A stretch of 41,794 bases of DNA from the NCBI GenBank assembly GCA_003646305.1, contig QNFJ01000001.1, forward strand, positions 1-41,794, written 5' to 3'. Below are positions 1,486 to 26,471 of this stretch, piece after piece. How positions within the stretch are numbered: the stretch's first letter is position 1; each line of letters begins with the position of its first letter. A program made the translations under genes and the position numbers. The DNA comes from Gammaproteobacteria bacterium. Lineage in GTDB: Bacteria > Pseudomonadota > Gammaproteobacteria > Methylococcales > UBA2780. A model generated the notes under the pieces. The model saw nothing but the letters and a program-made list of their open reading frames with translations. It searched no databases and was not told the origin of the DNA.

Positions 1486-2640
1486 GTGGATTTTTCTTTA
1501 ACCGAAGAGCAGTTGGCCATTCAGGAAAGCGCCAGACGTTTTGCTGAAGACAAGTTACTTCCCGAGTATCAGAATAATGACAAGAAGCATTGTTTTGATA
1601 AGGTGATGCTGAAAGAGATGGGTGAGCTGGGCTTGATCGGCAGCGAGCTTTCGGAGCGGTATGGTGGTTTAGGTCTAGGTTATGTGACAGCGGGTTTGAT
1701 CACCGAAGAGATTGCCCGAGCCGACTTTAATGTGGCCTATGTGCAGATCCTCGCTGGCCTGAACGGGGGGATTATTGAAAAGTTTGCGGCGCCTCATTTA
1801 GCGGAGGAGTGGATTCCAAAAATCATTAGCGGTGAGGCGCTTGTTGCGATCGCTTTGACGGAACCGAGTGCGGGATCTGATGCGGGAAATCTAAAACTGA
1901 AAGCCAAAAGGAAGGGGGATGTGTTCGTTCTTGATGGTGAGAAAACCTCGATTTCAGCTGCTGCTCAAGCGGATGTGGCGGTTGTTTTTGCTCGAACGGG
2001 TACACAGGAAGAAAAAGCGAGAGGGGTGAGTGCCTTTCTGGTGCCTTTAGATCATCCCAACATTACGCGTACTCATTTTGATGACCTTGGTGAGTCGATT
2101 GTTGGGCGCGGCTCAATCTTTTTCGATGGTGTCGAAGTACCGGCCGAGAATATGCTTGGAGAAGAGGGACTCGGTTTTATTCAGGTGATGCAGGGTTTTG
2201 ATTATAGCCGTGCCTTAATTGGTATTGAGTGTTTGGCGGCAGCGAAGAAATCGGTTGAAGAGGCCTGGGAACAGATTCGCCAACGTGAAGCATTTGGTAA
2301 AAAGATCTCAAAGTTTGAAGGTGCTAGCTTTCCTTTGGCCGAAGCGGAGACTTTTATCGAGGCGGCAAAACTGCTGTGTTACAAAACACTCTGGTTAAGA
2401 GATCAAGGTAAACCTCATACTGCCGAAGCGGCAATGTGCAAATGGTGGGCACCAAAAATTTCATTCGAGATTATTCATAATTGTTTGTTAGCGCATGGCC
2501 ACGGTGGCTACAGTAAAGAGTATCCGATCCAGCAGCGGCTACGTGATGTGCTTGGCTTGCAGATTGGTGATGGCACTTCACAAATCCAGAAGATTGTCAT
2601 TGCCAGAGAGAAAATTGGCCGTGATGGCGTTCCCTATTAA
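1486..2640 (+). CDS. acyl-CoA dehydrogenase family protein
   Basis: 384 aa with a GTG start downstream of TAGGAG. ACAD hallmarks are present (ALTEPSAGSDAG; C-terminal LGLQIGDGTSQIQKIVIAR). Asp sits where MCAD-type enzymes have the catalytic Glu (I-Y-E-G-T versus I-G-D-G-T). Confidence 0.9.
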   Translation: MDFSLTEEQLAIQESARRFAEDKLLPEYQNNDKKHCFDKVMLKEMGELGLIGSELSERYGGLGLGYVTAGLITEEIARADFNVAYVQILAGLNGGIIEKFAAPHLAEEWIPKIISGEALVAIALTEPSAGSDAGNLKLKAKRKGDVFVLDGEKTSISAAAQADVAVVFARTGTQEEKARGVSAFLVPLDHPNITRTHFDDLGESIVGRGSIFFDGVEVPAENMLGEEGLGFIQVMQGFDYSRALIGIECLAAAKKSVEEAWEQIRQREAFGKKISKFEGASFPLAEAETFIEAAKLLCYKTLWLRDQGKPHTAEAAMCKWWAPKISFEIIHNCLLAHGHGGYSKEYPIQQRLRDVLGLQIGDGTSQIQKIVIAREKIGRDGVPY

Positions 2641-2655
2641 AGAAGGTATCAGAGC

Positions 2656-3447
2656 ATGAGCGATAAAATTGTTATCTCATCGATAGAGGGAAATGTCGGT
2701 CTGATTATCATCAATCGAGCCGACAAATTTAATTGTCTTTCAATGGCCGTGCATCAGGCTTTGCAAGATGCACTACAGGCGCATGAAAGTAATTCGGAAG
2801 TGAGAGCGGTTTTACTTTGTTCGGAAGGTGATCACTTTTGTACCGGAGCAGATCTTGATGAGGTGCATGGCAAGATAGCGGCTAAAGACGATGCTGTGCT
2901 TAGAGAATTTATCGAACTGGGACATAAAACCTGTCGTGATTTTGAACAGACTAGTTTGCCAGTTGTTGGCGCTATTCAGGGGTTCTGTTTAGCGGGTGGG
3001 TTAGAGATATCACTCGGCTGTGATCTGTTGTTTGCTGCGGATGATGCGCTATTCGGTGATCAGCATGCCAACTATGGGTTGATACCTGGGTGGGGAGGAA
3101 GTCAAAGGCTTACTCGAATTATCGGTTTTCGTCGTGCGCTTGATCTGATGTTGTCAGGTCGCCGATTAAAAGCAAAAGAGGCTCAGGAATGGGGAATGGT
3201 TAATTATCTAGCACCTGCTGAATCGCTTAGGGAAGAGGCGCTTAAATATTGTCATCTGCTGGCATCAAAAAGTTCCGGCGGGCTTTCAATGATGAAAGCG
3301 CTCGCCTATCAAGGAAGTGATTTGAGCCTTGATGACGCTTTGCGACTGGAGGTCAACGAGGCGATTAAGGGGCTGCAAAGTGAAGATGTGGGAGAAGGGC
3401 TTGCTGCATTTGGAGAGCGCCGGGAACCTGTCTTCAGATCCCGATAA
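2656..3447 (+). CDS. crotonase-fold protein (enoyl-CoA hydratase/isomerase family) with atypical active site
   Basis: 263 aa. Crotonase motifs are present (FCTGADLDE, GFCLAGGLEISLGCD, GLIPGWGGSQRL). The first catalytic Glu is present (GGLEIS). The second aligns with His (FGDQHANYG versus FGQPEILLG of rat ECH). Confidence 0.85.
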   Translation: MSDKIVISSIEGNVGLIIINRADKFNCLSMAVHQALQDALQAHESNSEVRAVLLCSEGDHFCTGADLDEVHGKIAAKDDAVLREFIELGHKTCRDFEQTSLPVVGAIQGFCLAGGLEISLGCDLLFAADDALFGDQHANYGLIPGWGGSQRLTRIIGFRRALDLMLSGRRLKAKEAQEWGMVNYLAPAESLREEALKYCHLLASKSSGGLSMMKALAYQGSDLSLDDALRLEVNEAIKGLQSEDVGEGLAAFGERREPVFRSR

Positions 3448-3493
3448 ACAGATTTAAATAACGAATTAATATTTAGCCGAGAAGGGAAAAATA

Positions 3494-4276
3494 ATGAACT
3501 ACGAAGATATTACCTATGAAGTAAAAAATGGAGCAGCTTACGTCACCATTAACCGTCCAAAAGTATTTAATGCTTTTAGAGGGATTACCTGTGAAGAGCT
3601 AATTCATGCGCTGACTAAAGCCGCATGGGACAAAAGTGTTGGTGTGATTGTTCTGGCGGGAGCGGGTGATAAAGCATTCTGTACAGGTGGAGATCAAAGT
3701 GCACATGACGGTCAATATGACGGGCGAGGGATTGTTGGCCTGCCTGTTGAAGAGCTGCAAACAATTCTTCGTGATGCGCCTAAACCAGTTATTGCGATGG
3801 TACAAGGTTATGCCATTGGTGGGGGCAATGTGCTGGCGACGATCTGTGATATGACGATCGCCTCAGAAAGAGCCGTTTTTGGCCAGGTGGGCCCTAAAGT
3901 TGGCTCTGTTGATCCGGGTCATGGAACCGCTTATCTTGCCCGCGTGGTTGGGGAGAAAAAAGCACGTGAAATCTGGTACATGTGCCGTAAATATTCTGCA
4001 CAGGAAGCGCTTGAGATGGGGTTGGTTAACAAGGTTGTTCCACATGAAGAGCTTGCTGATGAAGTACAGAAGTGGTGTGATGAAATCATGGATAAAAGCC
4101 CAACAGCACTAGCGATTGCCAAGCGCTCTTTTAATGCCGATACAGAAAGTATCAGAGGAATTTCCGCGTTGGGTATGCAGACATTGCAGCTTTATTACAA
4201 TACAGAAGAGTCTCAGGAAGGGGTTAAGGCGTTTAATGAAAAGCGTAAACCTGATTTCCGCCAGCATGTTAAATAA
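3494..4276 (+). CDS. MenB/BadI-family crotonase, best read as a BadI-like 2-ketocyclohexanecarboxyl-CoA-type (beta-ketoacyl-CoA) hydrolase
   Basis: 260 aa. It carries FCTGGDQSAHDGQYDGRG (the short BadI-like version of the MenB GGDQ loop), GYAIGGGNVLATICD, GPKVGSVDPGHGTAYLARVVG and the C-terminal KAFNEKRKPDF. There are no menaquinone genes nearby, and it follows an ACAD and a crotonase. Confidence 0.72.
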   Translation: MNYEDITYEVKNGAAYVTINRPKVFNAFRGITCEELIHALTKAAWDKSVGVIVLAGAGDKAFCTGGDQSAHDGQYDGRGIVGLPVEELQTILRDAPKPVIAMVQGYAIGGGNVLATICDMTIASERAVFGQVGPKVGSVDPGHGTAYLARVVGEKKAREIWYMCRKYSAQEALEMGLVNKVVPHEELADEVQKWCDEIMDKSPTALAIAKRSFNADTESIRGISALGMQTLQLYYNTEESQEGVKAFNEKRKPDFRQHVK

Positions 4277-4296
4277 CGTTTAATCGAGATAAACCT

Positions 4297-4884
4297 ATGC
4301 CAGAATCAGGAATTTACGCCATCGATGGGGTTGTCCCAGTTATTCATCCGTCCGCCTTTGTTGACGAAAATGCCACGATTATTGGTGATGTCATTATCGG
4401 ACCAGACTGCTATATCGGTCCTAATGCTTGTCTGAGGGGTGATATGGCCACCATTGAAGTCGGAGCGGGTTCTAATATTCAGGATAACTGCACACTGCAT
4501 TGTATGCCCGGTTTGCCGACAATTATTGGAGAGTGGGGGCACCTTGGTCATGGTGCGGTGGTTCATAGTGCTCGGCTAGCAAAGAATGTCCTGGTTGGTA
4601 TGAATGCTGTTGTGATGGATCAGTCTTTTATCGGTGAGAATAGCGTTGTTGCTGCAATGGCGTTTGTAAAAGTCGGAATGCAAGTGCCAGAAAATACGCT
4701 GGTTGCAGGAACACCTGCACGTATCATTCGGCAGTTGACGGAACAGGAAATTGAAGGAAAACGAGACGGGACACGCTGTTATCACCAGTTAGTGAGCCGT
4801 TGTAAAGACTCTTTAAAGCGGGTCACGCCGCGGACTGAAAAAGAGGTGGGTCGCCCAGAGTTAAAAGTTAAACCGTTAGGATGA
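4297..4884 (+). CDS. gamma-carbonic-anhydrase-like hexapeptide-repeat protein (PaaY/CaiE/YrdA family)
   Basis: 195 aa. Left-handed beta-helix hexapeptide repeats are visible (IIGDVIIGPDCYIGPNACL...). The His triad spacing is retained (H68 in TLH, H85 and H90 in LGHGAVVH). Confidence 0.8.
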   Translation: MPESGIYAIDGVVPVIHPSAFVDENATIIGDVIIGPDCYIGPNACLRGDMATIEVGAGSNIQDNCTLHCMPGLPTIIGEWGHLGHGAVVHSARLAKNVLVGMNAVVMDQSFIGENSVVAAMAFVKVGMQVPENTLVAGTPARIIRQLTEQEIEGKRDGTRCYHQLVSRCKDSLKRVTPRTEKEVGRPELKVKPLG

Positions 4885-4942
4885 ATTTAAGTGAAGCGGT
4901 TGAAAGTATTGTTTTGTTTAAAATTTAGATTAAGAGGAAATC

Positions 4943-6139
4943 ATGGATTTAAATTACACTCCAGAAGAAAAAGCATTTCAATTAGAAGTGCGTAGCTTCT
5001 TAAAGGAAAGCTACCCGAAAGAGCTCCAGGATAAAGTTTCAAAAGGGATTGCGCTCAAAAAAGAGGATTATGTCCGTTGGCAGAAAATTCTTGCTAAGCA
5101 GGGTTGGGTTGCACCTGGCTGGCCGGAAAAATTTGGTGGCCCCGGCTGGAGTCCTGTTCAGAAATATATCTTTGATGAGGAGTGTGGTACTGCGAACTGC
5201 TTGAGGACGGTTGCTTTTGGTCTGGTGATGTTGGCGCCTGTCTTAATGGAATTTGGAACAGACGAGCAGCGTGAAAAGTATTTATCAGACATCTATAACA
5301 GTGATGTTTGGTGGTGCCAGGGTTATTCGGAACCCAACTCAGGTTCAGATTTGGCCTCTTTGCAGACGCGGGCAGAAAAGCAGGGTGACCACTATATCGT
5401 CAATGGCTCTAAAACATGGACAACCCATGGTCATTACGCCGATAAGATGTTTGCACTGGTTCGAACCAGCAAAGAAGATCGGAAACAAAAAGGGATCAGC
5501 TTCCTAATGCTCGATATGAAGGCGCCCGGTGTTACAGTCGACCCGATTATTACGGTTGACGGAATGCATGTGGTCAATCAGGTCTTTCTTGATAATGTAA
5601 AAGTACCGGTTGAAAACCTGGTCGGGGTAGAAGGGGAAGGCTGGACGATTGCAAAGTATTTGTTACAGCACGAACGAACTTATATTGCCCAGGTGCCACG
5701 TTCTAAAAAGCAGATTGAGCGCTTGAAGGTATTGGCAGGAAAAGAGCTGCACAATGGTAAATCGTTATTGGAAGATGATCGCTTTCGCGCAAAAATTGCT
5801 GAAATTGAGATTGAGTTATTGGCATTAGAAATGACCAGTTTGCGGATTCTATCCAAAATGTCAGCAGGGCAGCCTCCAGGGTCTGCCTCATCGCTACTTA
5901 AAGTCAAAGGAACAGAAGTACAGCAGGCGATTACGGCTCTACTAATGGAAGCGACAGGTTACTACGGTTTTCCTTACTTCAAAGAGGTCCTTAAAGAGGG
6001 CTGGAATGAAGAGGCAGTAGGGCCTGAAGAGGCAACCTTCCTCGCCCCACATTACTTCGACTGGCGTAAATCTTCTATTTACGGTGGCTCGAATGAAATT
6101 CAGAAAAATATTATGGCGAAAGCTGTATTGGGACTTTAA
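4943..6139 (+). CDS. acyl-CoA dehydrogenase family protein (putative catalytic subunit of a heteromeric pair)
   Basis: 398 aa with YSEPNSGSDLAS and the C-terminal SSIYGGSNEIQKNIMAKAVLGL. The MCAD-type Glu position is Gly, but an IVD/LCAD-type helix-G Glu is present (LLQHERT). Confidence 0.9.
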   Translation: MDLNYTPEEKAFQLEVRSFLKESYPKELQDKVSKGIALKKEDYVRWQKILAKQGWVAPGWPEKFGGPGWSPVQKYIFDEECGTANCLRTVAFGLVMLAPVLMEFGTDEQREKYLSDIYNSDVWWCQGYSEPNSGSDLASLQTRAEKQGDHYIVNGSKTWTTHGHYADKMFALVRTSKEDRKQKGISFLMLDMKAPGVTVDPIITVDGMHVVNQVFLDNVKVPVENLVGVEGEGWTIAKYLLQHERTYIAQVPRSKKQIERLKVLAGKELHNGKSLLEDDRFRAKIAEIEIELLALEMTSLRILSKMSAGQPPGSASSLLKVKGTEVQQAITALLMEATGYYGFPYFKEVLKEGWNEEAVGPEEATFLAPHYFDWRKSSIYGGSNEIQKNIMAKAVLGL

Positions 6140-6151
6140 GGGAGAACGGGA

Positions 6152-7282
6152 ATGAATCTTGAATTCACAGAAGAACAGGTTATGTTGCAGGATGCATTAA
6201 ACAAATACCTTGAAAAAGAATACAGCTTTGAGCAGCGGCAGAAGTTGAGCCGCAATGGCGTCGGTTATAGTGAAGAGAACTGGCAAAATTTTGCCGATAT
6301 GGGATTGTTGGGTGTTCCTTTTGATGAGCAATATGGCGGTTTTGGGTTTGGTGCAACAGGCCTGATCGTCGTCATGGAAGCGATTGGTAAAGGGCTGGTT
6401 GTTGAACCTTACCTTGCCTCTGTTGTTCTCGGTGGTCAGCTTATTCAACAAGCCGGTAGTGAGGTGCAAAAAGAGGCGTTGATTCCGCAATTGATTGCAG
6501 GTGAGTTGAAACTGGCTTTTGCTTATGTCGAGAGAAATTCTCGTTTTAACCTTGCGGATGTGGCCTTTAAAGCAGAAAAAGAGGGAGATGGTTTCCGTTT
6601 AAGCGGCAAAAAATCGGTGGTTTTCAATGCAGAGACAGCCGATAAAATTATCGTTTCAGCTCGAACAGCAGGAGATCAGACCAGTAAAGAAGGGATTTCT
6701 CTTTTTATTGTTGATAAAGGGGCAGTCGGTCTCTCTAGCAGAGACTATGAAACGGTTGATGGTTTGCGCGCATCTGAACTCGATTTTGATGGCGTGATTG
6801 TAGGGGCTGATGCATTAATTGGCTCATTAAATGAGGCCTATCCTGTTATTGAAAGTGTGATTGATTTTGCATCAGCCGCTATTTGTGCGGAGAGCGTTGG
6901 GGTGATCACGCAGCTTCGTGAGAAAACAGTTGAGTACCTGAAAACCAGAAAGCAGTTTGGTCAGCCTATTGGTGCTTTTCAGGTCCTACAGCACCGCACG
7001 GTTGATATGTTTATGGTAGAAGAGCAGATGCGTTCTTTAGCCTATTTAGCCGCAATTCGTGTGACTGATGGAACAGCGGAAGAGCGCCTCAAGAGTGTTT
7101 CTGCAGCCAAGGTCTATCTGGGTGATGCGCGCCCAATCGTCGGTGAACAATCTGCACAGTTACATGGTGGTATTGGGGTTACGGATGAACTGGATGTGGC
7201 CCATTACGTTAAGCGTTTAACGATGCTGAATGTGCTCTTTGGTGATCGCGATCACCATATGCAGCGCTTTTGCCAAAGCTGA
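6152..7282 (+). CDS. acyl-CoA dehydrogenase-like protein lacking a recognisable catalytic base (putative non-catalytic partner subunit)
   Basis: 376 aa, starting 12 nt after the preceding ACAD. The ACAD fold is recognisable throughout. The helix-G position reads VIDFASAAI (no Glu) and the C-terminal position reads LFGDRDHH (no Glu). Confidence 0.85.
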   Translation: MNLEFTEEQVMLQDALNKYLEKEYSFEQRQKLSRNGVGYSEENWQNFADMGLLGVPFDEQYGGFGFGATGLIVVMEAIGKGLVVEPYLASVVLGGQLIQQAGSEVQKEALIPQLIAGELKLAFAYVERNSRFNLADVAFKAEKEGDGFRLSGKKSVVFNAETADKIIVSARTAGDQTSKEGISLFIVDKGAVGLSSRDYETVDGLRASELDFDGVIVGADALIGSLNEAYPVIESVIDFASAAICAESVGVITQLREKTVEYLKTRKQFGQPIGAFQVLQHRTVDMFMVEEQMRSLAYLAAIRVTDGTAEERLKSVSAAKVYLGDARPIVGEQSAQLHGGIGVTDELDVAHYVKRLTMLNVLFGDRDHHMQRFCQS

Positions 7283-7294
7283 TCGGCTAAGCAG

Positions 7295-8317
7295 ATGTCT
7301 AAAACGGAAAAATTAAGTTATCCGTTTGCGGAAAAGCCATCATTTGGTGGTTTGCTCGAAGTTTCGGAAGGACTGTTCTGGCTGCGGGTACCTATTCCGT
7401 TTGCGCTTGACCACATCAATCTCTGGTTATTGCGTGATGGTGATGGTTGGACAATCATTGATACGGGCTTTTTTAGCGCAGAAGTCGCGACAATCTGGGA
7501 ACGGCTGCTAGAAGAATTTTGTGCAGGCGCACCGATTAAAAAAATTGTGGTGACGCACTTTCATCCCGACCACGTTGGTATGGCGAGCTGGTTGGTTGAG
7601 CGAACCGGAGCAGAGCTGTGGATGAGCGAGCGTGAATTCCTGACCGTTCATCGTGTATGTCAGCCCTATTCTGAACGTGAGATTACGGTGAGGGCTATCT
7701 TCTTCGAGCGTTTTGGGCTAAATGAAAAGCAGCTTGCCAGTGTCGTTAACGCGAGAAGTAGTGATGTTGAGGGGCTTCCGGAAGCCCCGGTCTCATACCG
7801 CCGATTGGTCGGTGGACAAACGTTATCGATAAATGGTGAGAACTGGAACTTGTTCAGTTTCGCAGGCCATAGTCCTGAGCATATTTGTCTGCACAATGCG
7901 GAGCGTAATTTGCTGATCTCGGGGGACCAGGTGTTGCCATCAATCTCTCCGAATATTAGTGTCACCTTTTACGAGCCACAGGCAAATCCGTTAGCGGAGT
8001 ATCTGAACAGTTTATCGAGGCTATCCGAGCTGAATGAAGAGACACTGGTGCTACCGTCACATGGTTCTGTATTCCAGGGTCTTCATCGGAGGATTGATCA
8101 GCTTGAGGCCGGACATCAAAAGCAGCTGGACAGGCTTTTGGAGTTTTGTAGGCAACCGCGTGATGGTAAAGAGGCGCTGGAAGCGATGTTTGGTAACCGC
8201 TTAAGTGCATTCAATTTGAGTCTGGGGGTTGGTGAGGCCCAGGCACACCTGAATTATTTAGTGGCCAAGCGTGAGCTAAAACAAAATGATGAGTTTATTC
8301 CACATTACCAGCGATAG
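7295..8317 (+). CDS. MBL-fold metallo-hydrolase
   Basis: 340 aa with the HxHxDH motif in VVTHFHPDHVG and downstream GHSPEH and PSHG. Confidence 0.85.
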   Translation: MSKTEKLSYPFAEKPSFGGLLEVSEGLFWLRVPIPFALDHINLWLLRDGDGWTIIDTGFFSAEVATIWERLLEEFCAGAPIKKIVVTHFHPDHVGMASWLVERTGAELWMSEREFLTVHRVCQPYSEREITVRAIFFERFGLNEKQLASVVNARSSDVEGLPEAPVSYRRLVGGQTLSINGENWNLFSFAGHSPEHICLHNAERNLLISGDQVLPSISPNISVTFYEPQANPLAEYLNSLSRLSELNEETLVLPSHGSVFQGLHRRIDQLEAGHQKQLDRLLEFCRQPRDGKEALEAMFGNRLSAFNLSLGVGEAQAHLNYLVAKRELKQNDEFIPHYQR

Positions 8318-8383
8318 GGCTCAGATTGTATTGTTTCCTAACAGGCCCCATACCCTAATTAGCTGCAATAGAGATAATTAATA

Positions 8384-8806
8384 ATGAACGATACAGTGAC
8401 ATACAAAAGCCTGATTCTAGGTGATGATTTTCTTGATCCACCGCCCTCTTTTGAGGTGACCAATGAGGTGGTTGATAAATATATTCGTGCAACAAACGAT
8501 GCAACCCAGGAGCTTGGAGAGCCTAATAGTAGAGGCCAGCGAATTGCACCTCCTATGCTGGCTGCGGTTTATGTGATTGACGCGCTGCGTACCAAGGTCG
8601 GGCCGCCGGGTGGCGTTCATGCCAAGCAGCAATTTAAATTTCATCGCCCCGCATGCGTGGGTGAAACACTTTATACCTCGGCAAAGATTGTCAAACTCTA
8701 TCAGAAAAAAGAGCGGAATTACGTTGAGATGACGACTGAAACGCTTAACCAGGATGACGACTTAGTGACGACAGGGCTGATCACTCGGATATGGGGGAAA
8801 GAATAA
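8384..8806 (+). CDS. hotdog-fold protein, MaoC N-terminal-half type (no hydratase-2 catalytic motif)
   Basis: 140 aa. Its size and pattern fit a hotdog fold. It has no [ST]GDxNPxH motif. Its stop TAA (8804-8806) overlaps the next ATG (TAATG). Confidence 0.72.
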   Translation: MNDTVTYKSLILGDDFLDPPPSFEVTNEVVDKYIRATNDATQELGEPNSRGQRIAPPMLAAVYVIDALRTKVGPPGGVHAKQQFKFHRPACVGETLYTSAKIVKLYQKKERNYVEMTTETLNQDDDLVTTGLITRIWGKE

Positions 8807-9237
8807 TGACGATTAGCGAGGAATTACAAAGCTATAAAAACCTTTCTGTAGGAGATCGCCTGCCTGAAATTAAGGTACTGGTTGACCAGAATATGGTCGA
8901 TGCTTACGCGGATGCATCGGGTGATACCAATCCATTACACATTGATCCTGAATTTGCCAAAACAACCTTCTTCGGGCGAACGATTGCGCACGGACTTTTA
9001 ACTCTGGCATTTGTATCGCAAGTGCTATCTGAATGGAACTGGCAGGGATGGGCTTATGGTGGCGAATTAAGCGTTGCTTTTTTAGGTCCTGTATACCCTG
9101 GAGATGAGGTTTCAGTCAGTGGAGAAATAGATTTAATTGAGCAGCGCGAAGAGGGTGTTTTTGCGCGCTGTAATTTGGCTTGTTATTGCGGGGAGAGAGC
9201 CGTTGTTAAGGGAACAGCAACCTGCAAAGTTGGTTAA
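8806..9237 (+). CDS. MaoC-family (R)-specific enoyl-CoA hydratase subunit
   Basis: It carries the canonical hydratase-2 motif YADASGDTNPLHIDPEFA. I prefer the ATG at 8806 (MTISEE..., TAATG coupling, GGGGAAAG upstream) over the track start at 8791. Confidence 0.85.
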   Translation: MTISEELQSYKNLSVGDRLPEIKVLVDQNMVDAYADASGDTNPLHIDPEFAKTTFFGRTIAHGLLTLAFVSQVLSEWNWQGWAYGGELSVAFLGPVYPGDEVSVSGEIDLIEQREEGVFARCNLACYCGERAVVKGTATCKVG

Positions 9238-9248
9238 GGAGAAAATAG

Positions 9249-10652
9249 ATGAGTTACCGTAAAGATGGGGCTTTAGAGAAAAAAGGCGACAGCTATTACC
9301 ACCAGATTGAGTGTGCTTCAGAAGATGAAATCATCAAGATTCAGGAAGAGAAATTACAGGCGCAGATGGCCTATTTGTCTAAAAACTCAAAGCTCTATCA
9401 ACAGAAGTTTGAGAAGGCAGGTATTCGTTTTGATGAGATCAAAACACTAAAGGATTTAGCCAAAGTCCCTTTTACCGTTAAACAGGATCTTAGGGACAGT
9501 CTTCAAGCTGCTCCACCATTTGGTCTTCACCAAACAGCACCGCTTTCTGAGATTGTACAGATGCAGGCCTCGTCAGGAACCACCGGTAGTCCCGCTTATG
9601 TCGCTCTGACTGAAAACGATATTGAGATGTGGAATGAACTGAGTGCGCGAGGATTTTATGCCTGCGGTGTTAACCCAGGCGACTTTGTTTTACATGGCTT
9701 TTCCATGAGTAAAGGCTTTGTTGGCGGTATCCCTTGTATGCAGGCGATTCAATATATGGGGGCAATTGATGTTCCTGTGGGCGCTGATGGTGGGGTTGAT
9801 CGGCTGTTACGTGCCTGTGCGGATATTAAACCGCGAGTTATTATTGGCGCGCCTAATTTTCTACTGCATATTGCCTCGATGGCGCCCGATATTCTTGGTA
9901 AACGTGCCGATGAACTGGGCGTAGAAAGATTAGTTGTTGGTGGTGAACCAGGTGGTGGTATTCCTGCGATTCGCGAATCACTGGAAGAGAAATGGGGCGC
10001 GAAAGTCTGTGAAATGATGGGAGGGACTGATCTCGGCGTCATCTATTGGGCAGAATGTGATGAGCAAGATGGCATGCATATGATCTGTCAGGATCACATT
10101 ATTGTCGAATTGATTGACCCGGAAACAGAGCAGGTGATTCCTTTTGAGAAAGGCGTTACTGGCGAGCTGATTTATACCGCGATTGGCCGCGAGGCTTCAC
10201 CCGTTGTTCGTTTTAAAAGTGGCGATCACATTGTGGTGACCGATACGGCGTGTAGTTGTGGCCGGACAGGCCCTAAAATACGCTGCTTTGGGCGAACAGA
10301 TGATATGTTGATTGTCCGCGGCATCAATGTCTTTCCATCGGCAATCCAGGATCTTATTTTACAGCTACAACCTGACACCAACGGCGTGATGCGTGTCTGG
10401 GCCGATTTTGAAGGCCATACCACGCAAGCAAATCTGAAAGTATTGGTTGAGCGCGGCATTGATCGGTCGAAAGAGCAGGATCAGGAGCTTATCAGCCATG
10501 TGGAGCAAACCATTCGCAACGCCTTATCGTTCAAGGCGAAAGTGATTGTTGTCGATGCAAATAGTTTTGAAAAACCGGGTGTTGCAAAAGTAGCGCTAAC
10601 GCTTCGTGAGCAACCCGGCTTTCTCACTCTTGATGATGAGGGTGCTCAGTAA
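9249..10652 (+). CDS. PaaK-like adenylate-forming enzyme (phenylacetate-CoA ligase / coenzyme F390 synthetase family)
   Basis: 467 aa with the P-loop-like QASSGTTGSPAYV. The overall pattern is PaaK-family rather than FadD-type. Confidence 0.8.
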   Translation: MSYRKDGALEKKGDSYYHQIECASEDEIIKIQEEKLQAQMAYLSKNSKLYQQKFEKAGIRFDEIKTLKDLAKVPFTVKQDLRDSLQAAPPFGLHQTAPLSEIVQMQASSGTTGSPAYVALTENDIEMWNELSARGFYACGVNPGDFVLHGFSMSKGFVGGIPCMQAIQYMGAIDVPVGADGGVDRLLRACADIKPRVIIGAPNFLLHIASMAPDILGKRADELGVERLVVGGEPGGGIPAIRESLEEKWGAKVCEMMGGTDLGVIYWAECDEQDGMHMICQDHIIVELIDPETEQVIPFEKGVTGELIYTAIGREASPVVRFKSGDHIVVTDTACSCGRTGPKIRCFGRTDDMLIVRGINVFPSAIQDLILQLQPDTNGVMRVWADFEGHTTQANLKVLVERGIDRSKEQDQELISHVEQTIRNALSFKAKVIVVDANSFEKPGVAKVALTLREQPGFLTLDDEGAQ

Positions 10653-12262
10653 TGTCAATTATAAAGTCGACTGTACATAATCAGTCTGAAGAGTTTATCG
10701 CTAATCGAAATCGTTATCTTGAACGGATCGAAGAACTACAGGAACACCGGCAGCGCGCCCATTTAGGTGGGCCAGAGAAAGCACGGAAACGTCATATAGA
10801 ACACCGCGAACAGATATTGCCGCGTGATCGTATTCGGTTGCTGATTGACCCGGGTTCTCCTTTTTTTGAACTGGGTGAACTTGCGGGTGATGGTCTGCCC
10901 GAAGGGACTCAGGTCGGTGCAAGTGTTATTACCGGCGTCGGCCTCATTAACAGCCGTCAATGTATGATTATTGCCAATGATGCCACCGTAAAAGGCGGTA
11001 CTTATTTTCCAATGACCTGTAAAAAACATGTTCGGGCGCAGACGTTTGCGATACAGCATCGGCTACCCTGCATCACTTTAGTTCAAAGTGGTGGTGCATT
11101 TTTGCCAGAGCAGGAAGGTATTTTTCCTGATGAGGGTATGTTCGGAAGCATCTTTGTTAACCAGATCGAAATGTCCGCTCAGGGTATTCCACAGATTTCC
11201 GTGGTAATGGGCTCATCAACAGCAGGTGGTGCCTATATACCTGCGTTGTGTGATGAGATTGTCATCATTAAAGGGAAAGGTTTTATGTATCTGGGTGGCC
11301 CCCAACTGGTTGAAGCGGCGACAGGTGAGAAGGTCGAACATGAAGCGCTAGGCGGTGCAGAAATGCATTGTCGGGATAGTGGTGTTACCGATCATCTAGC
11401 AGAAGATGACGCACATGGTTTGAGTATGGTACGCGATATTGTGCGAAATCTGGGTAACCTACCCGAACAACGCTGGGATGTGGCTAAATCGGTTCCACCA
11501 CTATATCCGGTGGAAGAGATTTACGGCATTGTTAATCAGGATACGAAAATTCCGACCGCTAACCGACAAATCTTGGCTCGCTTAATTGATGGTAGTGACT
11601 TTGATGAATTCAAGGCCAATTATGGCGATACGCTGATGTGTGGCTTTGCCAAAATACATGGTTTTGAAATCGGTATTTTAGCTAATGATGGCGTGATGTT
11701 TAGTGAGTCTGCTAAAAAAGGGGCGCACTTTATTAATCTTTGCTGCCAGCGCGATATTCCACTGTTATTTGTGGCCGATGTTCCCGGTTTTATGGTGGGT
11801 GAACATGCCGAGCGGGGTGGTATCGCAAAAGATGGAGCAAAGTTCATCACCGCCATGTGTTCTGCAAAAGTACCTAAATATACCTTAATCACGGGAGGCT
11901 CTTACGGTGCCGGTTATTTAGCCATGTGTGGTCGCCCGTTTAAACCGAATGCCATGTTAGCCTGGCCATCGGGTCGTGCTGGCATTATGGGGCCGGAGCA
12001 GGTTGCCAATACGCTTGCAACGGTACGCGAAGATATCCTCAAACGAGAAGGAAAAAGTTGGACGGAAGAAGAGCGGGAAGAATTTAAAGCGCCACATCGG
12101 AAACGATTTGAGGATTCTGAAGGTGCTTATAACTTTGCCTCCAAGTTGTGGTATGACGCGGTGATTGATCCAACAGAAACACGCGAAGTGCTGGCACTTT
12201 TACTTGATCTGGCAGGACGTTCGCCCAAAGTGGAAACTAAATTTGGTGTATTCAGACAATGA
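10652..12262 (+). CDS. acyl-CoA carboxylase carboxyltransferase (beta) subunit, methylcrotonyl-/geranyl-CoA carboxylase type
   Basis: 536 aa. The layout is typical of MccB/AtuC (RIEELQEHRQRAHLGGPEKARKRH..., ANDATVKGGTYFPMT, GSSTAGGAYIPA, GSYGAGYLAMCG). Its start overlaps the previous stop (TAATG). Confidence 0.9.
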   Translation: MSIIKSTVHNQSEEFIANRNRYLERIEELQEHRQRAHLGGPEKARKRHIEHREQILPRDRIRLLIDPGSPFFELGELAGDGLPEGTQVGASVITGVGLINSRQCMIIANDATVKGGTYFPMTCKKHVRAQTFAIQHRLPCITLVQSGGAFLPEQEGIFPDEGMFGSIFVNQIEMSAQGIPQISVVMGSSTAGGAYIPALCDEIVIIKGKGFMYLGGPQLVEAATGEKVEHEALGGAEMHCRDSGVTDHLAEDDAHGLSMVRDIVRNLGNLPEQRWDVAKSVPPLYPVEEIYGIVNQDTKIPTANRQILARLIDGSDFDEFKANYGDTLMCGFAKIHGFEIGILANDGVMFSESAKKGAHFINLCCQRDIPLLFVADVPGFMVGEHAERGGIAKDGAKFITAMCSAKVPKYTLITGGSYGAGYLAMCGRPFKPNAMLAWPSGRAGIMGPEQVANTLATVREDILKREGKSWTEEEREEFKAPHRKRFEDSEGAYNFASKLWYDAVIDPTETREVLALLLDLAGRSPKVETKFGVFRQ

Positions 12263-14247
12263 TTAAACGAATTCTTATCGCAAACCGCGGCGAAATCGCC
12301 TGTCGAATTACACGAACCTGCCGTAAATTGGGGATTGATGCCGTTGGTGTCTATTCAACGGCAGATAGCCAGGGCCGCCATGTTAGAGAGATTGGTCATT
12401 CTGTTGCTATCGGTGGTGCCAGTGCAGCAGATAGTTACCTCAATATAGATAAAGTCATTGCAGCAGCTAAAGCGACTAACTGTGATGCCATTCATCCAGG
12501 TTATGGTTTTTTATCAGAAAACCCCGACTTTGCCGAGGCGGTTGAAGGTGCTGGGCTTATTTTTATTGGTCCCAGAGCGGATAGCTTACGCCGTTTTGGT
12601 GATAAGTCTGCCGCTAAAAAAGAGGCTATTAATGCCGATGTGCCGGTTATCCCGGGCAGTGATGGAAAGCTTTCCGATCCAGTGGAGATTGCCAAGATTG
12701 TTAAAAGCATGGAGCTTCCAGTGATGCTGAAAGCCGCCGCGGGTGGTGGTGGGAAGGGGATGCGGATTATCAGTGATCTGCCAAGTCTGGAATCCGATAT
12801 CAGCAGTGCCATGAGCGAAGCATTGCGTTCTTTTTCCGATGAGGCGCTACTGATTGAAAAATGTATCTACAATGCGCGTCATGTAGAGGTGCAGATTGCA
12901 GGTGATGGTGAAGGCAATGTCGTTCACCTTTTTGAACGAGAATGCTCTTTACAGCGTCGCCACCAAAAAGTTGTTGAAGAGGCGCCTGCTATTTTCCTCC
13001 GGCTAGAGCAGCGTGAAAAATTGTTGGAAGCTGCTTGCCGACTTGGTAAGCAGATTAATTTTAGAGGACTGGGCACTGTTGAGTTTCTTGTGCTGGGTGA
13101 CGATTACTATTTTCTGGAAGTAAACCCGCGGCTTCAGGTGGAGCACCCCGTTACTGAGAGCATAACTGGTCTGGATCTGGTCGAACTACAGATTCGCATT
13201 GCACAGGGAAGCGGTTTTGGCTTTCGCCAAGAAGAGGTCAGTGCTTCAGGTCACGCCATTGAGGTGCGCCTTTATGCCGAATCACCAGAGCAGAACTTTA
13301 TGCCAGCGACGGGAACAATTGAGCTTGTGAAATTCCCAGACGAGCACCTGCGCGTTGAATCCGGGGTCGATAGCGGTGACGAGATAAGTGCCTATTACGA
13401 CCCAATGGTTGCCAAACTGATTGCTACTGGAGAGAATCGAAATCAGGCGCTGGAACGTCTTCAAAAAGGAGTTGATGAAACCATTCTTTTTGGGGTTGAT
13501 AATAACCGTAATTTTCTTCAGCAACTGCTTCGCCATAACGAGGTTGTCGAGGACAAGATTGACACCGGCACGCTGGATCGCTGGTTAGCCGATTATGCCG
13601 ATGGAAAGGGTTCTCTTGAAGCAGAAAAACAGGCAGCTATTGCGGCTATTCTATGGCTAAACCAGCACCGAAAGAGTGGCTCATTAAATCCATGGGAAGG
13701 CGCCGATATCTTTAGTTATTGGGCATTAAGATCACCGAATGACAAACCTATTTATACCTTTAGCCTGATCGAAAATGAAGATGAGTGGAAGATCGCTTTT
13801 CTGAATATCGATGAGCAAGGGCTTGTTGCGCTGATGGTAAATGACCAGCGGATTGAATTGCGGCTGAAAGCTCAGGGCGATGACAGCTGGATGGCTGAAT
13901 TTCCGGAGGCACATATCCCTGTGACGGCTATTGCCACAACTGAACAGCTCTATATCCACGCACTTTCACAACAAAGTAGCTACCGAGTGGAGCAGGTTGT
14001 CCGCGATAAACAAGGGGAAGCGGCCGGTGCGAATAGTGTCATGGCACCGATGATGGGTGAGATTATCAAGGTGATTATTAAGGAAGGGGATAGCGTAGAA
14101 GAGGGTGATCTTCTGATTGTAATGGAGTCAATGAAAATGCAATTACAAATTGAAGCCGTTAAAGCGGGTACGGTAACTAACGTTCTTTGCAAGGCAGGCG
14201 ACAATGTTGCACGCGGTGAAGTTGTGGTAGAAGTCGATGCAGAATAA
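12259..14247 (+). CDS. acyl-CoA carboxylase biotin carboxylase + BCCP (alpha) subunit
   Basis: 662 aa. It has an ATP-grasp biotin carboxylase domain (ILIANRGEIACRI, KAAAGGGGKGMR, EVNPRLQVEHPVTE). The C-terminal biotinyl domain has the motif VMESMKMQ, with the Lys codon at 14134-14136. The start overlaps the beta subunit stop (ATGA). Confidence 0.92.
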   Translation: MIKRILIANRGEIACRITRTCRKLGIDAVGVYSTADSQGRHVREIGHSVAIGGASAADSYLNIDKVIAAAKATNCDAIHPGYGFLSENPDFAEAVEGAGLIFIGPRADSLRRFGDKSAAKKEAINADVPVIPGSDGKLSDPVEIAKIVKSMELPVMLKAAAGGGGKGMRIISDLPSLESDISSAMSEALRSFSDEALLIEKCIYNARHVEVQIAGDGEGNVVHLFERECSLQRRHQKVVEEAPAIFLRLEQREKLLEAACRLGKQINFRGLGTVEFLVLGDDYYFLEVNPRLQVEHPVTESITGLDLVELQIRIAQGSGFGFRQEEVSASGHAIEVRLYAESPEQNFMPATGTIELVKFPDEHLRVESGVDSGDEISAYYDPMVAKLIATGENRNQALERLQKGVDETILFGVDNNRNFLQQLLRHNEVVEDKIDTGTLDRWLADYADGKGSLEAEKQAAIAAILWLNQHRKSGSLNPWEGADIFSYWALRSPNDKPIYTFSLIENEDEWKIAFLNIDEQGLVALMVNDQRIELRLKAQGDDSWMAEFPEAHIPVTAIATTEQLYIHALSQQSSYRVEQVVRDKQGEAAGANSVMAPMMGEIIKVIIKEGDSVEEGDLLIVMESMKMQLQIEAVKAGTVTNVLCKAGDNVARGEVVVEVDAE

Positions 14248-15418
14248 ACGCTCAATTCGAGGCAAAGTTGCGATTGTTGGTGTTGGGCAATCACCTTCAG
14301 GACGGGTGCCCGGCAGAAGCCCGTTAGACTTGACTGCCGATGCAACGCTTAAAGCACTGGCCGACGCCGGTATGGATAAAAGTGAAATTGACGGGGTCTT
14401 GACGGGTAATGCCTTCGCCTCATCCTTCCACCGTTTTAGTGTTGCATTGAGTGAATACCTGAACATTCAACCTTCATTCTCTAATACCTTGCAGGTCTCG
14501 GGAGCCACTGCGGGAGCCGCCGTTAATATTGCCGCAGCAGCGATTAACGGTGGGCTTGCAGATACGGTGCTGGTCGCCTGTGGTGATAGCCTGTTAACTG
14601 GGATGACACCAGATATGGCGATTAGAGCGATGACCGAAAGCCGTGATCAACAATATGAAATGCCTTTTGGAATTCCTGTGGCCAATACGTTTGCGATGAC
14701 GGCTCAGCGGCATATGAAAGAGTACGGCACCACCTCTGAACAGTTAGCACAAGTGGCCGTTACCTTTCGTGAGCATGCTCGACGTACACCGGGTGCGCAA
14801 AAGACGGACTCGATTACGGTTGAGGATGTGTTAAATTCCAAAATGGTGACGACGCCGTATCACAAACTGGACTGTTCTCTTATTTCTGATGGTGCTGTTG
14901 CGCTAATTTTGACCTCGGCGGAAAAGGCGCATGAATATACTCAGGAGCCAATTTATATTCTGGGTGGTGGCGAGTATTACAGCCATGAGCATATTTTTTT
15001 GATGCCAGAATTGACCCAGACGGGTGCGGTTCAGGCAGCTAAAAAGGCCTATGAGATGGCGGGTGTGACGGCAAAAGATATTGATGTTGCGGGAATTTAT
15101 GATTGTTTTACCGGAACGGTTTTGATGATGCTCGAAGATCTCGGGTTTTGTAAAAAAGGCGAGTCAGGCCCATTCGTTGAGGCGGGAGAAATCACCTACG
15201 GAGGGGCTATTCCGACTAATACTCACGGTGGAATGCTCTCTTATGCGCATCCGGGTATTCCGGCGGCATGGTTTCATTTTGCGGAGGTGGTTAGACAGCT
15301 TCGCAATAGCTGCGGTGAAAGACAGGTTGCCAGTGCAGAGCTTGGACTAGTCCATACCTTAGGTGCTGGTTTTTCAACCCAGGCAACGACGATATTAGGA
15401 ACGGGGAGCACACTGTGA
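14237..15418 (+). CDS. thiolase-fold (SCP-x/Ltp-type) protein apparently lacking the nucleophilic Cys; candidate aldolase subunit
   Basis: 393 aa with an SCP-x-type thiolase pattern (VAIVGVGQS..., NTHGGMLSYAHPG). Gly occupies the nucleophile position (GATAGAAVNIAAAAINGG versus CATGSTALFMARQLIQGG). Confidence 0.85.
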   Translation: MQNKRSIRGKVAIVGVGQSPSGRVPGRSPLDLTADATLKALADAGMDKSEIDGVLTGNAFASSFHRFSVALSEYLNIQPSFSNTLQVSGATAGAAVNIAAAAINGGLADTVLVACGDSLLTGMTPDMAIRAMTESRDQQYEMPFGIPVANTFAMTAQRHMKEYGTTSEQLAQVAVTFREHARRTPGAQKTDSITVEDVLNSKMVTTPYHKLDCSLISDGAVALILTSAEKAHEYTQEPIYILGGGEYYSHEHIFLMPELTQTGAVQAAKKAYEMAGVTAKDIDVAGIYDCFTGTVLMMLEDLGFCKKGESGPFVEAGEITYGGAIPTNTHGGMLSYAHPGIPAAWFHFAEVVRQLRNSCGERQVASAELGLVHTLGAGFSTQATTILGTGSTL

Positions 15419-15855
15419 GTGAGCAAAAGGTTGGAGTAGAAGAGGCGCTAAAAAAACCATTGCCCACGCCTGATGGTGATAGCCAGCCAATGTGGGATGG
15501 TTTTAAAGAAGGTAAATTATTGTTGCAGCATTGCGGTGATTGCGGACATGTTCAATATTACCAACAAGGTATTTGTCGCAACTGCCAATCGCCTAACCTG
15601 CAGCATCAGAAAGCAAGTGGGCGTGGAGTGATTCATTCATATAGTGTCGTTCATCGTGCGCCCGGCCCTGCGTTTAGAGATGATGTTCCTTATGCAGTGT
15701 TATTAGTCGAACTGGAAGAGGGGCCCAGAATGATTAGCCGTTTGGTTGGGCAGGATTTTGACTCACTGGATTTTGATCTGCCGGTCAGGCTGGAAACCAT
15801 TAAGGTGAGTGATGAACTTTTTCTCCCTTATTTCGCATTGAACGAGTGCAATTAA
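15415..15855 (+). CDS. DUF35 OB-fold / zinc-ribbon protein (thiolase-fold partner)
   Basis: 146 aa with a GTG start overlapping the previous stop (GTGA). It has a C-x2-C-x10-C-x2-C ribbon (CGDCGHVQYYQQGICRNC) followed by an OB-fold-like segment. Confidence 0.85.
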   Translation: MSEQKVGVEEALKKPLPTPDGDSQPMWDGFKEGKLLLQHCGDCGHVQYYQQGICRNCQSPNLQHQKASGRGVIHSYSVVHRAPGPAFRDDVPYAVLLVELEEGPRMISRLVGQDFDSLDFDLPVRLETIKVSDELFLPYFALNECN

Positions 15856-25316: not shown

Positions 25317-26471
25317 CTATTTAACTTTCAATCCCATCGTATTGGCAATCAGATTACGCTGCATTTGTGAGGTTCCGGCGGTGATGGTTGTGCTACGGGC
25401 ATCGCGGTAGTGGCGCTGCATATCAAATTCCATCATATAAGAGTAACCGCCCATTATTTGCATACCCATATTGGCCACTTCGGCAAAGGTTTCTGAGCCG
25501 AATAGTTTGGCCTGACTCACTTCTCGCAGTGCCTTTTCGCCTTTTGCCATCTTGCTTGCGGCGCGCAACATCAGCATTCTGCTGGCATCTACTTTAGTTT
25601 GCATATCGGCCAACATATGGGCGATGGCCTGAAAGTTTCCGATCGGTTTGCCGAACTGTTTGCGCTCTTTTGCGTAGGCTAATGCCTGATCAACAACGGT
25701 TTGTGCGTTACCGGCATAACCGGCTGTGGTGACAACGCGTTCTAGCAGAAGGCCGGAGAGCATGCAGTCCCACCCTTCGTTCACTTCACCAATGCGCATT
25801 TCATCACTAATTCTGACATTGTTGAAGAAAATCTCATTGGTTCCGAGCATGCGACGACCTAATGTTTTAAGTCGGCGAATCTCTACGCCGGGTGTGTCGT
25901 AGGGCACCATAAAGAGGGAGATCCCTTTTTGATAGGGAACGGTGGTATCGGTTTTACAGTAAAGATTGATAACGTTATTTTTTGCATCGGCTGCGGTGGA
26001 AAATAGTTTTTGTCCACTAATGACCCAATCATCACCCTCTCGTACCGCGGTGGTGCGCATATTGCCAGCATCCGAGCCTGCATCGGGTTCGGTCATGGAG
26101 ATCGACATGCGAATGTCACCGTTGATCACTTGTGGGATGTATTGTTTTTTCTGGGCTTCGCTGCCGTGGCGAAGGATATTCAGGGCATTAAATACCGATA
26201 GCGCGTAGGCACCGAGAAAGTCATAGCCTTTACGGCCTAGCTCTTCACCAACGATGACCATATCGAGGACATTGCCATCATAACCACCAAACTCTTCTGG
26301 GAAGGGCAGGCCAAGCAGTCCCATTTCGACCCATTGGTCGTAAACTTCATAAGGATAAAGCCCTTGCTCATCGTGCTCACGAATGTAGTCGGCTGTGGCA
26401 ATGTCGTCCATCATGCGGCGAACACTATCGCGCAAAAGATTTTGTTCTTCTGTTAATTCAAAATTCATCAT
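25317..26471 (-). CDS. acyl-CoA dehydrogenase family protein
   Basis: 384 aa with MTEPDAGSDAG and a helix-G Glu (GLLLERV). The C-terminal motif is TITAGTSQMQRN, with Ala at the MCAD Glu position. The start overlaps the upstream stop (TAATG). Confidence 0.9.
   Translation of the reverse strand: MMNFELTEEQNLLRDSVRRMMDDIATADYIREHDEQGLYPYEVYDQWVEMGLLGLPFPEEFGGYDGNVLDMVIVGEELGRKGYDFLGAYALSVFNALNILRHGSEAQKKQYIPQVINGDIRMSISMTEPDAGSDAGNMRTTAVREGDDWVISGQKLFSTAADAKNNVINLYCKTDTTVPYQKGISLFMVPYDTPGVEIRRLKTLGRRMLGTNEIFFNNVRISDEMRIGEVNEGWDCMLSGLLLERVVTTAGYAGNAQTVVDQALAYAKERKQFGKPIGNFQAIAHMLADMQTKVDASRMLMLRAASKMAKGEKALREVSQAKLFGSETFAEVANMGMQIMGGYSYMMEFDMQRHYRDARSTTITAGTSQMQRNLIANTMGLKVK

Follow-up and report, generated by a model that had tools for sequence, protein, structure and literature searches.

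Do two adjoining acyl-CoA dehydrogenase (ACAD) genes encode two enzymes, or the two subunits of one? The question is raised by a stretch of 41,794 nucleotides (positions 1 to 41,794 of contig QNFJ01000001.1, assembly GCA_003646305.1; hereafter the window) from a marine, oil-degrading gammaproteobacterium that is a relative of Cycloclasticus (75-82% identity to proteins of Cycloclasticus metagenome-assembled genomes, MAGs). Two different ACAD open reading frames (ORFs), encoding proteins of 398 (P0001) and 376 (P0002) residues, lie next to one another here on the plus strand, as do the genes of α2β2 heteromeric ACADs. An initial annotation, made from the sequence alone, placed them 12 nt apart and proposed a heteromeric ACAD with only one catalytic type of subunit. 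The coordinates and the spacer are confirmed (the stop codon of the first gene, TAA, occupies 6137-6139 and the ATG of the second starts at 6152), and each protein contains all three ACAD domains, N-terminal, middle and C-terminal, according to Pfam. The proposal itself agrees with everything that we were able to bring to bear on it: complementary loss of motifs, gene adjacency, natural gene fusions, a structural model of one such fusion and a phylogenetic tree. Taken at the level of sequence, these make it highly probable that P0001 and P0002 are the α and β subunits of a single heteromeric ACAD, most likely an α2β2 tetramer with two molecules of flavin adenine dinucleotide (FAD) and two active sites.

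In the α2β2 ACADs of solved structure, the isoalloxazine ring, the catalytic glutamate and the substrate are held by the α subunit, and the ADP-ribose of the FAD is held by β (PMC11153573). To judge by its residues, P0001 would qualify as such an α subunit, having both the catalytic glutamate and the isoalloxazine-binding residues of ChsE/IpdE-type ACADs. Its best NCBIfam match is TIGR03204 (pimC_large; 454.6 bits), aligned end to end (residues 2-398 against model positions 1-395), and its top matches in the PDB are α subunits, namely ChsE4 (4x28_A, 164.6 bits) and IpdE1 (6wy9_A/6wy8_B, 152.5 bits), the best canonical ACAD scoring 128.9 bits. We profiled conservation in 126 PimC-type and 149 PimD-type sequences, which included representatives at no more than 50% identity from a library of 1.8 billion proteins. 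The initial annotation had credited P0001 with a glutamate on helix G like that of the isovaleryl-CoA (IVD) and long-chain acyl-CoA (LCAD) dehydrogenases, within LLQHERT (residues 240-246), and this is borne out: E244 aligns with the corresponding glutamates of ChsE4 and IVD and is kept in all 126 PimC-type sequences. Around the flavin, S129, E130, P131, G134, S135 and D136 are equally invariant (126/126), as are K157 and W159, and Y128 and T160 are found in 124 and 122 of the 126. A glycine, G381, stands in the column of Glu376 in medium-chain acyl-CoA dehydrogenase (MCAD), so that α, like IVD, LCAD and ChsE4, has its base on helix G instead. Neither RxxFG nor QxxGG occurs in the 126 profiled members of the α family, and an insertion of about 18 residues stands in place of the GGxGY region of canonical ACADs.

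P0002 has the opposite set of residues. Its sequence suggests that, as expected of a β subunit, it lacks both a base and an isoalloxazine site and keeps the residues on the ADP side. The best NCBIfam match is TIGR03203 (pimD_small; 413.3 bits), again end to end (residues 4-374 against model positions 3-373), and the scores of both proteins for these two families lie far above those for every other NCBIfam family. At the helix-G position, within VIDFASAAI (residues 236-244), the initial annotation had read alanine or serine. The alanine is upheld by HMMER, which aligns A240 with E254 of IVD, and by a concordant 12-sequence L-INS-i alignment; among the 149 β-type homologues, 93 have Ala here, 41 have Gly and none has Glu. 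The same column holds Ala in IpdE2 (D-V-A-R, compared with D-F-A-S in P0002) and Ser in ChsE5. At the MCAD-type position, within LFGDRDHH (residues 362-369), glycine had been reported. The absence of an acidic residue stands, and the register was off by one: in the L-INS-i alignment, and when the HMMER alignment is extended without gaps, F363 occupies the Glu376 column and G364, present in 146 of 149 homologues, corresponds to Gly377. The next residue, D365, is Asp in just 97 of 149. Neither HMMER nor the multiple sequence alignment (MSA) placed a Glu or Asp of P0002 at either base position.

The two flavin-ring motifs of P0002 are degenerate across the family, position 126 being variable, R131 occurring in 119 of 149 sequences and the Trp and Thr columns of the second motif holding V/L/A and L/I/F, respectively. 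The motifs that contact the FAD of the neighbouring subunit in canonical ACADs are retained: R266 and Q277 are found in 149 of 149 sequences, Q268, F269 and H281 in 147, G270 in 139, and F276 is nearly invariant; in the QxxGG motif, Q336 is found in 145, H338 in 147 and G339 in 148. Other acidic residues were considered as a base in β and rejected. D238 lies two residues ahead of the base column, is only 65% Asp and is found in the non-catalytic IpdE2 too; E247 falls on the structural Gln of AAQALG; and D365 and D367 are 65% and 64% conserved. The site is in any case without flavin-ring residues.

In a canonical homotetrameric ACAD of the IVD/LCAD type such as human IVD (1IVH), which shares the fold of P0001 and P0002 and has its base on helix G as α does, every subunit contains a base, flavin-ring motifs and the RxxFG and QxxGG motifs that act in trans. 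Here, no single chain has them all and they are split over P0001 and P0002. Because this loss of motifs is complementary, the site composed of the α body and trans contacts from β is intact, and the reciprocal site is faulty on both sides. In the enzyme that we propose, α would bind the flavin ring and the acyl-CoA, and Glu244 on helix G would take the α-proton. β, with neither a flavin-ring site nor a base, would act as the dimer partner, its Arg266/Gln277/Gln336-His338-Gly339 surface holding the ADP part of the FAD of α. The reciprocal site (flavin ring on β, ADP on α) would be dead on both sides, and the enoyl-CoA product would pass to a split MaoC hydratase encoded just downstream.

Genomic evidence also ties the two proteins together. 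Among 151 evenly sampled Pseudomonadota genomes, 21 contained 28 PimD-type genes (E <= 1e-80), and each of the 28 directly adjoins a same-strand PimC-type gene, C preceding D in 26 pairs and D preceding C in the other 2. The same pairing recurs in three more metagenomic contexts, those of the nearest homologues outside Cycloclasticus, and the MAG from which the window derives (2.45 Mb, 88% complete) has one PimD-type gene only. Moreover, 6 of the 150 best representatives are natural fusions of 765-793 aa. A search with one fusion returned 1009 proteins at E <= 1e-40, and of 125 fusion-length homologues examined (fusions include P0132, P0140, P0147, P0165, P0204, P0232 and P0397-P0515), 73 run β-α and 43 run α-β. 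The abundance of both orders implies that α and β were fused repeatedly and independently. Among the sequenced isolates with fusions are Saccharopolyspora elongata (WP_132488836.1), Sphingomonas sp. YL-JM2C (WP_081663429.1), Bradyrhizobium diazoefficiens, Achromobacter and Novosphingobium, and one fusion was confirmed as an unbroken ORF on its contig. Motifs were read from an alignment of fusions only, a mixed alignment of fused and unfused proteins having been discarded (α was misaligned to the β half, at 24-29% identity). In the 70 aligned fusions the β half has the R/F/G/Q/H residues, its R266...H281 motif being likewise invariant, and the α half has SEPxxGSD, KxW and the E-R pair, with the helix-G glutamate at E638. 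As a stand-in for a multimer prediction of P0001 with P0002, we used fusion P0147, whose AlphaFold2 (AF2) model, built from this alignment, has a mean predicted local distance difference test score (pLDDT) of 94.1 and a predicted template modelling score (pTM) of 0.94 over 792 residues; its two halves are predicted confidently to dock against each other.

Both genes are also maintained by selection. Measured against the closest relative (contig L056, Logan ERR4801159; 95% amino acid identity for α and 92% for β, synonymous divergence about 1), the ratio of non-synonymous to synonymous substitution (dN/dS) is 0.027 for α and 0.049 for β, compared with 0.067 for the neighbouring crotonase and 0.078 for the PaaY-like gene. 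The two subunits are under strong purifying selection, and β is not decaying.

The tree with known α2β2 ACADs gives the same picture. It was inferred from 37 sequences in IQ-TREE (LG+C20+F+G4, with ultrafast bootstrap and SH-aLRT supports) and contained P0001, P0002, PimC-type and PimD-type sequences, the halves of three fusions, the four other ACADs of the window and sequences from the PDB. The α-type sequences, including ChsE4, IpdE1 and P0001, lie on one side of a branch with 100/100 support, and the β-type sequences, including ChsE5, the IpdE2 fragment and P0002, on one side of a branch with 99/98 support. In the α group and in the β group alike, the steroid-type and Pim-type sequences are sisters; this mirrored topology fits descent from one ancestral α/β pair. 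By descent, P0001 and P0002 would be the PimC/PimD branch of the same α/β lineage that contains ChsE4-ChsE5 and IpdE1-IpdE2. An α-like ORF of contig L052 (2639-3862 there) was left out of the final tree; its branch measured about 7 substitutions per site and it is probably a spurious high-GC ORF. A search of 41 actinomycete genomes for true IpdE2 equivalogs gave no match over E 1e-100.

How do P0001 and P0002 compare with characterised systems? The families that score best, end to end, are PimC and PimD of Rhodopseudomonas palustris (pimFABCDE), which have similar sizes (about 395 and 378 aa), the same order of large before small and the same split of motifs. Orthologues in Cycloclasticus MAGs are named pimeloyl-CoA dehydrogenase subunits by NCBI, and the β subunit of the cultured C. 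pugetii is 75% identical to P0002. Further homologues of PimC/PimD are ThnJ/ThnK of the tetralin pathway of Sphingopyxis granuli TFA (PMC6563040). Dicarboxylate-specific PimCD homologues from beta-proteobacteria are both required for growth on C8-C12 dicarboxylates, as seen in 2025 by transposon sequencing with random barcodes (RB-TnSeq), and the authors, noting their similarity to ChsE1-2, suggested a heterotetramer (PMC12543098). In Comamonas testosteroni TA441, a PimC-like and PimD-like pair, ORF21 and ORF22, acts on 4-methyl-5-oxo-octane-1,8-dioyl-CoA, a product of ring cleavage; mutation of either gene alone caused this substrate to build up, and its authors regard the two as subunits of one dehydrogenase. 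That substrate is a branched dicarboxylyl-CoA from ring opening, of the kind inferred here for P0001/P0002. Unlike our pair, ORF21/ORF22 sit in a steroid gene cluster; the likeness is drawn from how they have been described.

The initial annotation had instead pointed to steroid side-chain degradation (the FadE28-FadE29/ChsE1-ChsE2 type). Kinship with the steroid enzymes holds insofar as the α and β clades are shared with them, although the nearest family is PimC/PimD. The steroid α2β2 ACADs, ChsE4-ChsE5 (FadE26-FadE27, 4X28), IpdE1-IpdE2 (6WY8/6WY9) and ChsE1-ChsE2 (FadE28-FadE29), resemble P0001/P0002 in having the helix-G Glu in α and a small residue at that column in β, and the RxxF(G/D)xPIGxFQ motif is kept in their β subunits as in P0002. 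They differ in that similarity amounts to only about 160 bits for α and 86-121 bits for β (β identity about 25-28%), in that ChsE5 is deleted at the SEPxxGSD site whereas P0002 has a full-length middle domain, and in that the Pro89/Pro91 loop of ChsE4 is not kept in P0001. The claim that the pair accommodates bulky substrates lacks direct support. The window contains aliB-like, badI-like, carboxylase, CoA-transferase and old yellow enzyme (OYE) genes and no steroid catabolic or ring-degradation genes. The E-helix prolines of ChsE4 are P89 and P91 (PMC11153573). Close to this loop, at positions 87 and 91, Pro is the residue in most PimC-type proteins; P0001 has Leu87 and Ala91, within CLRTVAF (residues 86-92, window 5198-5218), and both residues are found across the Cycloclasticus clade. 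The loss of both prolines may represent a clade-specific change of the substrate pocket.

Several observations weigh against our assignment. The scores of P0001 and P0002 fall below the NCBIfam cut-offs (623.85 and 652.7, respectively), so that they are not equivalogs of PimC and PimD; only 1 of the 151 sampled Pseudomonadota genomes exceeds the PimD cut-off. When full-length P0002 is compared with the PDB, homotetrameric IVD comes first (9jq4_A, 135.4 bits; 1ivh, 133.5 bits), ahead of the β subunits IpdE2 (121.3 bits) and ChsE5 (85.8 bits). The sequence of 9jq4_A has Ala at the Glu254 position in its alignment with P0002. With the C-terminal half of P0002 as the query, IpdE2 is first (57.2 bits, against 49.2 for the next match). 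In a search of the PDB with the PimD profile, the two β subunits alone align through the C-terminus, canonical ACADs ending near residue 355, and the β subunits lie outside the top five matches listed. The AF2 model of P0002 (pLDDT 94.1) has as its best fold match in the PDB the IpdE2 β subunit (6wy8_C/A; Foldseek E 1.2e-25, TM 0.89/0.92), and the lead of IpdE2 over IVD is small. The modelled fusion is a homologue about 40-48% identical to P0001 and P0002 and not the pair itself, and pTM is an indirect measure of an interface. The tree includes just 8 canonical ACADs, and its PDB sequences are partial, having been taken from HMMER alignments. Finally, the accessible literature yielded no report of a purified PimCD-type enzyme.

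What the enzyme oxidises must be read from its surroundings. The pair belongs to a plus-strand alicyclic-acid operon (1486-15855). A BadI-type enzyme is encoded two genes upstream, and the product of BadI is pimeloyl-CoA; on the simplest reading, the pair would therefore oxidise ring-opened, possibly alkyl-substituted pimeloyl-CoA. Probable substrates are a dicarboxylyl-CoA of medium chain length or a branched or alicyclic acyl-CoA formed in the operon, for example (methyl-)pimeloyl-CoA. This assignment is based on gene order alone, and gene order also offers points that tell against it. Domain and family searches found no 3-hydroxyacyl-CoA dehydrogenase gene in the operon. The order PimC-PimD-(MBL)-MaoC_A-MaoC_B, MBL being a metallo-beta-lactamase-fold hydrolase, is found in 10 of 11 related loci of the Cycloclasticus clade, the eleventh ending before that point (the search of genome contigs for related loci yielded Cycloclasticus relatives and one weak match), and the split MaoC hydratase is likely to be the next step of the module. 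Two loci have PimC-PimD-MaoC_A-MaoC_B as a four-gene unit with no badI or aliB upstream (L003:4794-8006 and L004:4790-7991). In the closest relative, all that is left of badI is ~85 nt from its start and ~65 nt from its end (L056:953-1150; the remnants align with window 3487-3576 and 4224-4288), the middle ~650 nt being deleted, while ECH1, PaaY and both ACAD genes are whole; the deletion may be genuine or may be an artefact of assembly. These observations loosen the link of the pair to the product of BadI.

Typical pim clusters have a different composition, with a FadB-like hydratase/dehydrogenase, a true thiolase and a ligase; the neighbours of the pair in the window are the split MaoC, MBL-fold hydrolase, PaaK-like ligase, carboxylase and Cys-less thiolase-like protein with DUF35. 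A fused α-β ACAD in Saccharopolyspora elongata (SMKW01000034.1, L051:3078-10358) lies in a pim-like operon that also encodes DUF35, a thiolase of the SCP-x type, both subunits (A and B) of a CoA-transferase and a hydratase/dehydrogenase resembling FadB, in contrast to the MaoC/aldolase context of the window.

An alternative that fares better than the others accepts a heteromeric ACAD and denies that it is a pimeloyl-CoA dehydrogenase. In the mycobacterial igr module the successive parts are a heteromeric ACAD, a MaoC hydratase that is likewise heteromeric and an aldolase, an operon that the ACAD pair, the two-subunit MaoC hydratase and, farther away, the Ltp2-like protein with DUF35 of the window presumably resemble. 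P0001/P0002 would then be the first enzyme of a comparable three-step module, in which a split MaoC hydratase and a Cys-less thiolase-fold aldolase with DUF35 come next and the last reaction is a retro-aldol cleavage instead of oxidation and thiolysis, and its substrates would be acyl-CoAs with a tertiary β-carbon, such as cyclohexylacetyl-CoA-type naphthenic acids or 3-methyl-branched acids. We regard this as possible but doubtful. It would account for the MaoC pair found behind the ACAD pair in every locus of the Cycloclasticus clade that reaches far enough, for the units that lack badI and aliB, for the missing 3-hydroxyacyl-CoA dehydrogenase and for the conservation of the pair beside a badI that is internally deleted. 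At one further locus (L010:3945-10943) the ACAD pair, MBL, MaoC pair, thiolase-like gene and DUF35 run without interruption, with no ligase or carboxylase between them. None of the other 27 PimCD-type pairs has MaoC neighbours, which argues for recruitment specific to this clade, and the lost E-helix prolines suggest an altered pocket. Against it, the pair is far nearer to dicarboxylate-type PimCD than to the steroid enzymes, in the window it comes after a BadI that exceeds its cut-off and whose product is pimeloyl-CoA, and the carboxylase genes that separate the MaoC pair from the aldolase are a better fit for a Liu/Atu-like route.

It is very improbable that P0001 and P0002 are instead two independent homotetrameric ACADs, P0002 having an unconventional base (D238, D365 or D367) and binding its own FAD. 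Such a view can appeal to the three complete ACAD domains of P0002, to the first place of homotetrameric IVD among its full-length matches in the PDB, and to its acidic residues, 109 of the 149 homologues having Asp or Glu at position 238 and 97 having Asp at position 365. It founders on the flavin site, where VERNSRFN and VVF stand in place of SEPxxGSD and WxT, at positions that are variable or hydrophobic throughout the family, and on α, which has neither RxxFG nor QxxGG, so that an α homodimer would be without trans contacts to FAD. Nor would two independent enzymes be expected from 28 adjacent pairs out of 28 and from abundant fusions in both orders, and IpdE2, a β subunit of solved structure, has the same D-x-A arrangement and is non-catalytic. 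The least credible explanation, that P0002 is a decaying or functionless duplicate beside a P0001 that works alone, would suit its want of catalytic and flavin-ring residues but is contradicted by a dN/dS below that of the crotonase and PaaY-like neighbours, by a set of non-catalytic residues invariant across 149 diverse sequences, by the presence of β beside α in every sampled genome with a PimD-type gene, often with fusion to α, and by RB-TnSeq and knock-outs of homologues in which both genes were required (PMC12543098; Comamonas ORF21/ORF22).

The preferred reading thus remains one heteromeric ACAD with α and β encoded side by side. The features on which it draws, and the genes around them, are collected in Table 1.

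Table 1. Features of the α and β genes and of the surrounding operon, with coordinates in the window.
Feature	Position	Strand	Basis or remark
Shine-Dalgarno-like AAGAGGA, 5' of the α gene	4932-4938	+	Ends 4 nt before the ATG at 4943; read from sequence
Predicted α (large, catalytic) subunit P0001, PimC-like ACAD, 398 aa	4943-6139	+	NCBIfam, PDB matches, α clade
α FAD isoalloxazine-side motif YSEPNSGSD, residues 128-136	5324-5350	+	Family profile
α FAD motif K157-T-W159-T160-T161	5411-5425	+	Aligned with IVD KFWIT (MSA)
Codon of E244, predicted helix-G catalytic base	5672-5674	+	Aligned with ChsE4 E247 (HMMER) and IVD E254 (MSA)
α-specific insertion, residues ~343-362, FPYFKEVLKEGWNEEAVGPE	5969-6028	+	At the canonical GGxGY region (MSA)
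α C-terminal loop YGGSNEIQ	6080-6103	+	G381 in MCAD-Glu376 column (MSA)
12-nt spacer GGGAGAACGGGA	6140-6151	+	With Shine-Dalgarno-like GGGAGA, ribosome-binding site for the β gene; read from sequence
Predicted β (small, non-catalytic) subunit P0002, PimD-like ACAD, 376 aa	6152-7282	+	NCBIfam, AF2 fold, β clade
β degenerate FAD motif VERNSRFN, replacing SEPxxGSD	6527-6550	+	Aligned with IVD SEPNAGSD
β degenerate FAD motif KSVVFNA, replacing KxWITNG	6611-6631	+	Trp replaced by V156, Thr by F158
β helix-G segment D238-F-A240-S	6863-6874	+	A240 in IVD/ChsE4 catalytic-Glu column (HMMER, MSA)
β R266-K-Q-F-G...F276-Q277...H281	6947-6994	+	Contacts the neighbouring subunit's FAD in canonical ACADs
β Q336-L-H338-G339-G340, QxxGG motif kept	7157-7171	+	Family profile
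β F363-G364-D365	7238-7246	+	In MCAD Glu376-Gly377-Thr378 columns (MSA)
Operon 1486-15855, gene 1: AliB-type cyclohexanecarboxyl-CoA dehydrogenase	1486-2640	+	583 bits, over cut-off
Operon, gene 2: crotonase		+	
Operon, gene 3: BadI-type 2-ketocyclohexanecarboxyl-CoA hydrolase		+	475.7 bits, over cut-off 467.6; two genes upstream of the pair
Operon, then: PaaY-like protein, ACAD pair P0001/P0002, MBL-fold hydrolase		+	
Split MaoC-type hydratase pair, 140 + 148 aa	8384-9237	+	Pfam FAS1_DH_region, MaoC_dehydratas
Operon, after the MaoC pair: PaaK-like ligase, carboxylase of the methylcrotonyl-CoA carboxylase (MCC) type (two genes), thiolase-like protein + DUF35 (14237-15855)		+	

Other genes of the window deserve brief mention. 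Three minus-strand ACADs (25317-26471, 26471-27649 and 29316-30482) have a helix-G glutamate of the IVD/LCAD type (LERV, PERV and PERV, respectively) and no MCAD-type Glu in the MSA, and the AliB-like ACAD (1486-2640) carries a Ser on helix G and, within GDGT, an Asp where the MCAD-type base would be. Elsewhere, an ORF of 184 aa at 39724-40278 covers only positions 87-237 of the 342-position Oxidored_FMN (OYE) profile and is followed by a 120-aa ORF (40217-40579); these are separate from an intact OYE gene at 35471-36613, and the first may be a broken or frameshifted OYE gene.

The type of enzyme described here is already known, and what our analysis adds is evidence for heteromery across the whole family together with a proposed coupling, specific to one clade, to a split hydratase and an aldolase. 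For annotation, the two genes should count as a single enzyme in which one subunit is catalytic, and the apparent number of ACAD activities in this catabolic island is thereby halved. Complementary motifs, the side-by-side position of all 28 sampled pairs, fusions of either order and mirrored trees point to one ancient α/β pair. They lend computational support to an idea merely suggested in print, that the widespread PimCD-type dicarboxylate dehydrogenases share the α2β2 architecture of the mycobacterial steroid enzymes (PMC12543098). The proposed coupling to the MaoC hydratase and aldolase is a hint of the way in which Cycloclasticus may deal with acids that bear rings or branches. Tentatively, Cycloclasticus and its relatives might have recruited a PimCD-type ACAD to an igr logic outside steroid metabolism, in which acetyl or propionyl units would be removed by retro-aldol cleavage from alicyclic or β-branched acids of petroleum (naphthenic acids). 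If so, these would be genes for a cyclohexylacetate-type route that has long been an orphan, one enzyme of which we presume would be (1-hydroxycyclohexan-1-yl)acetyl-CoA lyase (EC 4.1.3.35).

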